DNA of 64,000 nt. It comes from Escherichia coli. GTDB taxonomy: Bacteria > Pseudomonadota > Gammaproteobacteria > Enterobacterales > Enterobacteriaceae. The stretch lies in assembly GCF_003018115.1 (NCBI RefSeq), contig NZ_CP027457.1; one strand, 5' to 3'. Each line of letters begins with the position of its first letter. Within the stretch, counting starts at the first letter, position 1. The notes under the pieces are model-generated. The model was not told where the DNA came from, made no database searches, and was given only the letters and a program-made list of their open reading frames with translations. The translations under genes were made by a program, and so were the position numbers. Shown here one piece after another: positions 4,371-4,485 of the stretch.

Positions 4371-4485
4371 AACCCTCTCCCTGAAAGGGCGAGGGGGAAA
4401 CCACCGTTCCCTTTCAGAAAATGAGCTAAACATTGCACGGGACGGTCCCCTCGCCCCTTTGGGGAGAGGGCTAGGGTGAGGGGCA
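4371..4485. repeat. Pair of inverted ~24-bp GC-rich imperfect palindromes (ccctctccc...gggcgagggg and its inverted copy) able to form a long hairpin
   Basis: Direct reading: the segment near 4371-4397 and the segment near 4449-4485 are near reverse complements of each other; intergenic between emrD and tisB. Confidence 0.4.

Follow-up and report, generated by a model that had tools for sequence, protein, structure and literature searches.

BoxC is the 1990s name of an intergenic repeat of Escherichia coli (Bergler 1992), which was renamed PIT element by Hoyne et al. (2000) and described as an intrastrand triplex motif, TMECO, by Holder et al. (2015, PMC4666352). The TMECO consensus comprises three blocks and reads CCCTCNCCC-N3-6-GGGNGAGGG-N3-GGGNGAGGG. 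Oligonucleotides of type A and type B, with and without a mismatch, form an intrastrand purine-motif triplex in vitro, as established by CD and NMR, and TMECO oligonucleotides stall polymerase in vitro; a stable triplex was not supported by DMS footprinting in vivo (PMC4666352). Strain K-12 harbors five inverted pairs of these units, in which a type-A copy is always associated with a type-B copy. At palindromic sites, parts of the motif are sometimes lost, leaving plain stem-loops, and TMECO loci vary more than intergenic control sites do (PMC4666352). Functionally, PIT elements display neither promoter nor terminator activity (PMC4666352, citing Hoyne and Maher) and show no position bias relative to ORFs (PMC4666352).

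Other small repeats share some of these traits. REP elements and BIMEs are short, GC-rich, imperfect palindromes located in intergenic regions, often just past terminators, but they have no sequence similarity to BoxC and do not possess a third G-block. Stabilisation of 3' ends and blocking of read-through are roles often ascribed to REP elements. ERIC/IRU sequences and other bacterial MITEs are small, non-coding inverted repeats, dispersed in intergenic regions and polymorphic in their presence or absence. Quasipalindromes are known in E. coli as hotspots of template switching, a mutational mechanism in which clustered multi-base changes render one arm exactly complementary to its partner.

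The locus described here belongs to a 64-kb stretch of an E. coli chromosome (contig NZ_CP027457.1; hereafter "the window") and is intergenic, between ysdE/emrD on one side and tisB on the other (Table 1). It is composed of two GC-rich hairpin units of 23 nt, arranged as inverted copies with 52 nt between them. The first-pass annotation had described two inverted, imperfect palindromes of ~24 bp, about 55 bp apart and lying between emrD and tisB, and both the arrangement and the location proved right. Read on the plus strand, the left palindrome is CCCTCTCCC-TGAAA-GGGCGAGGG and the right one CCCTCGCCC-CTTTG-GGGAGAGGG, each being imperfect. The units are also mutually reverse-complementary: a repeat finder delineates two arms of 27 nt (4370-4396 and 4447-4473), 85% complementary and separated by a 50-nt gap. 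The whole of positions 4370-4485 is laid out as TAA-CCCTCTCCC-TGAAA-GGGCGAGGG-GG ... GGTC-CCCTCGCCC-CTTTG-GGGAGAGGG-CTA-GGGTGAGGG-G, and thus includes a third block, GGGTGAGGG, which falls inside the range delimited at first pass (to 4485). On the plus strand, the segment bearing the pair starts 18 nt past ysdE; on the minus strand, it follows the tisAB terminator and precedes the emrD start codon by 174 nt.

Table 1. Features of the BoxC-bearing locus and its surroundings (positions in the window).
Feature	Position	Strand	Description
emrD	2999..4183	-	
ysdE small-protein gene	4265..4339	+	Intact in all alleles
BoxC-bearing segment	4357..4527	.	~171 bp, 58.7% GC; from alignments and genome counts
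Type-B BoxC tail fragment	4360..4372	-	Minus-strand TTACAGTTCGCAC; compare TTAATGTTCGCACC after the type-B copy of K-12 fepB-entC
Left BoxC unit, best read as a hairpin-only remnant	4373..4395	-	Minus-strand CCCTCGCCC-TTTCA-GGGAGAGGG
Spacer between the units	4396..4447	.	Single-copy, found at this locus only, in 1497 genomes
Type-A 5' flank of the right unit	4442-4447		ACGGTC
Right BoxC unit, complete three-block TMECO of "type A mm"	4448..4483	+	Consensus match with 0 mismatches
Right unit, C-block	4448-4456		
Right unit, loop 1	4457-4461		CTTTG
Right unit, G-block 1	4462-4470		
Right unit, loop 2	4471-4473		CTA
Right unit, G-block 2 (third block)	4474-4482		GGGTGAGGG
Right unit, terminal G	4483		
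Type-A BoxC tail	4484..4508	+	CACAGGCAGCGCAGGTGCAAACATT; from oriented K-12 copies with flanks
tisAB intrinsic terminator	4555..4582	-	12-bp stem, 4-nt loop, T-run; strong
tisB toxin gene	4602..4691	-	
istR	4997-5126		

Judged by their sequence, the two GC-rich palindromes are a BoxC repeat pair, that is, a known intergenic repeat of E. coli predicted to be able to form hairpins and three-stranded DNA. The right unit (4448-4482) fits the three-block consensus (PMC4666352) without a mismatch, and its third block makes it a complete member of the family. A single base separates it from the commonest K-12 TMECO (nos 7, 11, and 15), loop 2 being CTA instead of TTA; this loop corresponds neither to the A form (TTA) nor to the B form (CCG). 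The exact 36-mer of the right unit has at least 14 entries in the supplementary file of PMC4666352, one of which, in Table S8, is NC_009801 4170416-4170381, from strain E24377A. These coordinates lie between tisB and ysdE/emrD of E24377A, hence at the same locus as in the window, so that the right unit has already been catalogued here. The pair is therefore already known, as a member of a long-known family with its right copy listed. Beyond what was noticed at first pass, the present analysis provides the family name BoxC/PIT/TMECO and identifies as its defining trait the third G-block, which allows the intrastrand triplex and which the left copy does not possess.

The orientation and type of both units were established by comparing them, flanks included, with 16 K-12 copies (five pairs and six singles). 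In the type-A copies, the common 5' flank is ACGGTC and the common tail GAACAG..CAGC..GGTGCGAACATT; their counterparts in the type-B copies are TTTTC(C/T) and T(T)AAT.TTCGCACC. The right unit of the window has the type-A flank and a tail like those of the type-A copies of fepB-entC, ygfF-gcvP, and alx-sstT; this tail is homologous to the 27-nt spacer of the convergent A+B pairs found at these three K-12 loci. On the minus strand, the left unit exhibits the type-B 5' flank GGTTTCC (TTTCC) and the tail TTAnnGTTCGCAC, again as in type-B copies, and its hairpin, CCCTCGCCCTTTCAGGGAGAGGG, is identical to blocks 1-2 of K-12 TMECO no. 10 (Table 1 of PMC4666352). When searched on either strand, however, it fails the three-block consensus and harbors blocks 1 and 2 only. 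Loop 2 and the third block, 12 nt in all, are gone: the type-B tail TTACAGTTCGCAC directly follows block 2, and CAGTTCGCA occupies the position of the third block. In contrast to a TMECO, this unit cannot form the triplex. In view of its type-B flanks, it is best read as a type-B remnant having undergone a 12-nt loss, and we infer that this loss was a slippage deletion between two tandem G-blocks. Such a reading fits both the A+B pairing and the loss of motif parts reported in PMC4666352.

Several general traits of the family are found in the window pair: it is intergenic, multi-copy, endowed with type-A and type-B flanks, arranged as an inverted A+B pair, and located at a strain-variable locus. 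The five inverted A+B pairs of K-12 were confirmed here, and the one at lldD-trmL is divergent, with a 59-nt spacer. Like it, the window pair is divergent (minus/plus), with a unique 52-nt spacer; the other four K-12 pairs are convergent and share a common spacer of ~27 nt. In the convergent pairs, compared at loci including hrpB-mrcB and fepB-entC, this ~27-nt spacer serves as the type-A tail and, in reverse complement, as the type-B tail, and the resulting A-spacer-B block of ~100 nt looks like the real repeated composite. The window locus shows the two halves of this block in permuted order, each with its own copy of the GTGC(G/A)AAC part of the spacer.

A scan of the 64-kb window finds the two-block pattern CCCTCKCCC-N2-12-GGGMGAGGG nowhere but at the two units, and the three-block pattern once, each against an expectation of 0.00 (100 shuffles in the case of the former), which rules out a chance occurrence. 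The 9-mer GGGNGAGGG is 19-fold over-represented in the window, its excess outside the element originating from a coding tandem repeat. This repeat belongs to an ORF of 4190 residues (22027-34599, plus strand) encoding a giant inverse autotransporter of the intimin/invasin family (IAT_beta, Invasin_D3, Big_1, and Invasin_D4 domains). Between 25480 and 32457, the ORF harbors 24 tandem copies of a 291-bp (97-residue) repeat, 86% identical, from which most of the GGGCGAGGG 9-mers of the window come.

At the scale of the species, the 190-nt element finds 68,315 places, almost all of them chromosomal, in 5399 of 5426 complete E. coli genomes, and the BoxC core occupies a median of 13 places per genome, with a maximum of 26. 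The suggestion of a non-coding, dispersed miniature repeat family, made before any genomic copy had been sought, is thereby borne out. Among the same 5426 genomes, the 52-nt spacer is found at exactly one place per genome in 1497 of them, and the 62-nt stretch 4484-4545 (the tail and the sequence to its right) at exactly one place in 1509. The repeated part consequently consists of the BoxC units (~35-60 nt) and not of the whole segment. For the pairing itself, blocks were parsed directly, as a MAFFT alignment of such short units misplaced the loop gaps. In the set made up of the 23 K-12 copies and the units of this locus, the loop-closing pair covaries, being C-G in 17 and T-A in 6, so the pairing, too, is conserved; 18 of 26 retain the central G/A mismatch.

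Folded as a single strand, positions 4356-4510 are predicted to adopt one structure in which the two units pair together instead of forming two local hairpins, as had been surmised from the letters alone when an extended stem-loop was proposed. The predicted energies amount to -36.0 kcal/mol for DNA and to -74.2 and -68.5 kcal/mol for RNA of the plus and minus strands, with z-scores of -5.05, -5.00, and -4.17, respectively, and no shuffled sequence was as stable; a single unit folded alone reaches about -16 kcal/mol. Mapped base by base on the purine-motif triplex, the right unit would provide eight canonical triads (G.G-C and T.A-T) and a mismatched one, as in the "A mm" type, a count derived from its sequence and the scheme of PMC4666352.

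No intrinsic terminator, in the sense of a GC-rich hairpin followed by a T/U run, was called in 4357-4527, and neither arm is followed by such a run; a terminator function of the segment was rejected on these grounds. Terminator-like sites were called nearby on the minus strand, at 4582-4555 and 4348-4331. The latter is a hairpin, CGGCAATAAATGTTGCCG, that overlaps the end of ysdE, is followed on the minus strand by CTTTTGTTTA, and is conserved in all alleles examined; it would constitute a second stop for tisAB read-through ahead of the emrD upstream region. Rfam covariance models identified no family in the segment at their gathering scores. At a permissive E-value, the only match was mir-1275 (4374-4469), with 19.7 bits where 71 are needed and E = 0.82, i.e., at chance level. 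A coding role seems improbable as well: the ORFs crossing the segment (39 residues on the plus strand, 62 and 104 on the minus strand) run through the palindromes, and the REP allele described below would not preserve them.

The locus exists in several forms. The BoxC-bearing segment 4357-4527 is present in 1509 of the 5426 complete genomes, and 72% do not have it. In K-12 (DH1), O145 RM9872, and MEI003, a single REP of ~32 bp (GGTAGGGCGGATAAGATGCGTCAGCATCGCATCCGAC) is found between the same flanks. The comparison with K-12 recommended by the first-pass annotation thus reveals a REP at the exact site of the pair, and this REP, downstream of the tisAB terminator, has been noted independently (PMC2577331). 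The REP consensus palindrome (GCCGGATG...CATCCGGC-like) is absent from the window at this site. Among the ~1500 carriers, the segment is 99-100% conserved. The major allele (E24377A type) has, relative to the window, three substitutions clustered in 5 nt of the left loop (4382 T>C, 4383 G>A, and 4386 A>G), and its left hairpin is the exact reverse complement of the right one. The pair closing the left hairpin is preserved in both, as T-A in the window and C-G in the major allele. The window type is a minority allele, with about 29 records in the identity band of at least 99%.

As compared to the major allele, strain JNU displays a 75-bp deletion with a 5-nt GAGGG microhomology between two G-blocks. 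It joins the left hairpin to loop 2 and the third block of the right unit, yielding one complete three-block unit; from the alignment, this GAGGG-to-GAGGG deletion appears to regenerate a full triplex motif out of a hairpin-only remnant and its neighbour. About 12 genomes have kept the tail and lost the spacer. For JNU, a two-step origin (inversion between the arms, then deletion) had also been envisaged and was dropped, both because no genome shows a flipped spacer junction and because a simple deletion from the major allele explains this strain. The four aligned alleles show no difference within the 167 nt bordering emrD. In addition, some E. coli genomes are devoid of tisB altogether, which matches the reported absence of tisB/istR from phylogroup B2 (PMC9040746). 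One allele without tisB and istR was observed in the ysdE-ivbL region of strain TUM17543, where unrelated sequence follows GCCGGGA, a junction consistent with the complex deletion/insertion reported for that phylogroup.

The alternative alleles look like the products of templated or slippage events. The likeness to quasipalindrome hotspots resides in the left hairpin of the major allele, a perfect reverse complement of the right one that differs from the window by three changes within 5 nt. The series might also be considered a natural record of BoxC units being made and unmade in place, from a REP to the pair with perfect arms, to the pair with a templated change of three loop bases, and to the single complete unit, the BoxC pair and the REP being possibly interchangeable structured spacers; we regard this idea as rather improbable. 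If true, emrD and ysdE could thereby be shielded from the transcription of tisAB that is induced by SOS.

The explanation we favour, with a probability of roughly 85%, is that of a divergent BoxC/PIT/TMECO pair, complete and of type A on the right, truncated and of type B on the left, which has no dedicated regulatory role and would act, if at all, via DNA structure. Most likely, this repeat DNA is prone to form structures, does not regulate, and promotes instability locally. The pair sits, in some E. coli lineages, in a segment of ~171 bp that has the tisAB terminator on one side and the region upstream of emrD on the other. When this DNA becomes single-stranded, for example during replication or transcription, each unit would fold into a G/C hairpin of 9-10 bp, to which the third G-block of the right unit may add a purine-motif third strand, and the two units could pair mutually into a cruciform arm of ~27 bp. 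Such structures would favour polymerase stalling, slippage, and template switching, which would explain the variation of the locus together with the published link between these repeats and instability. Apparent signs of instability that count for this reading are the alternation of REP and segment, the three clustered loop substitutions, and the 75-bp GAGGG deletion. Against a visible instability stands the 99-100% conservation of the segment in ~1500 carriers, the rare alleles amounting to about 12 genomes for the deletion and about 29 for the window type.

An element acting at the RNA level may be envisaged instead, within the 3' region of ysdE on the plus strand or within tisAB read-through on the minus strand, where the stem-loop would stabilise a 3' end or block read-through into emrD, the REP and the BoxC pair being interchangeable in this function. 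The arguments for it concern position and predicted stability: a strong RNA stem is predicted for either strand (-74.2 kcal/mol with z = -5.0 for the plus strand, -68.5 kcal/mol with z = -4.2 for the minus strand), the segment follows ysdE by 18 nt on the plus strand with no terminator-like site called between the two on that strand, and K-12 has a REP at the same site (PMC2577331). We nevertheless hold it to be unlikely, since neither arm is followed by a T/U run, no terminator-like site is called in 4357-4527, the segment lies, on the minus strand, beyond the strong tisAB terminator, and PIT elements lack promoter and terminator activity as well as any ORF-relative position bias (PMC4666352, citing Hoyne and Maher). 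The same observations leave without support the effect on mRNA stability that had been proposed at first pass. The presence of two unrelated structured repeats at one site could nonetheless mean that a structured element is useful there, and the closeness of the segment to both genes (just 3' of ysdE, and upstream of the emrD start codon by 174 nt) leaves room for an effect on expression.

Very unlikely, in our opinion, is the notion of a MITE-like unit, in which the ~171-bp segment would be a non-autonomous element moved by a transposase encoded elsewhere. Its presence/absence polymorphism, sharp boundaries, internal inverted repeats, and dispersed multi-copy core recall ERIC/IRU and other MITEs. 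However, the inverted repeats are internal and not terminal, no target-site duplication can be read at the junctions in the allele alignment, and the "empty" site holds a REP. Furthermore, only the BoxC units of ~35-60 nt are repeated: neither the spacer nor the tail with its right flank has a second copy in any of the 5426 genomes, among which no second locus with the same 171-bp unit was seen either, and the whole segment was accordingly rejected as a repeated composite. An operator of emrD, or a site for a nucleoid protein upstream of its promoter, is scarcely credible. Palindromes are typical of operators and the distance to the emrD start codon, 174 nt, is short, but 72% of E. coli genomes have no such segment, the 167 nt adjoining emrD are the same in all four alleles, and the motif is found beside unrelated genes with no functional pattern (PMC4666352).

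For annotation, the locus should be labelled as a BoxC/TMECO pair, and not as a candidate for a new repeat or RNA; in other respects, it matters little. It does offer a tidy example for the question raised by Holder et al. of how TMECO motifs cause local variability, with four distinguishable alleles in public genomes, two of which bear signatures of G-block slippage or arm-templated change. These natural alleles are usable as isogenic test cases for work on non-B DNA or on tisB/emrD expression. To our knowledge, no protein is known to bind the BoxC motif.

The motif extends beyond E. coli. Many copies of the exact three-block pattern were found, among the matches listed, in Mitsuaria chitosanitabida, in a Methylomirabilota MAG, and in a Contendobacter MAG, and the divergent orientation is the commonest close arrangement, with 28 of the 34 adjacent pairs among these matches. 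Most of the exact three-block matches in the sampled loci, which number at least 166, come from the betaproteobacterium M. chitosanitabida (NZ_BCYP01); nearly all of its matches among those listed have GCTTGC as loop 1, and they mostly form divergent pairs with spacers of 15-272 nt. Similar sequence is present on 224 of 72,556 plasmid records, some of which are clearly mislabelled chromosomes: several "E. coli plasmid" records with matches are 4.8-4.9 Mb long, evidently chromosomes. The BoxC-like plasmid or chromid records include 65 from Rhizobium, 63 from Sinorhizobium, and 40 from Azospirillum. In phages, the motif is rare (3 of 50,697 records). In each of the Campylobacter phages A18a and A11a (MG065686.1 and MG065691.1), 44 nt of the right unit are matched at two places with 93% identity, and an occurrence of the BoxC motif in phages of such a host was unexpected.
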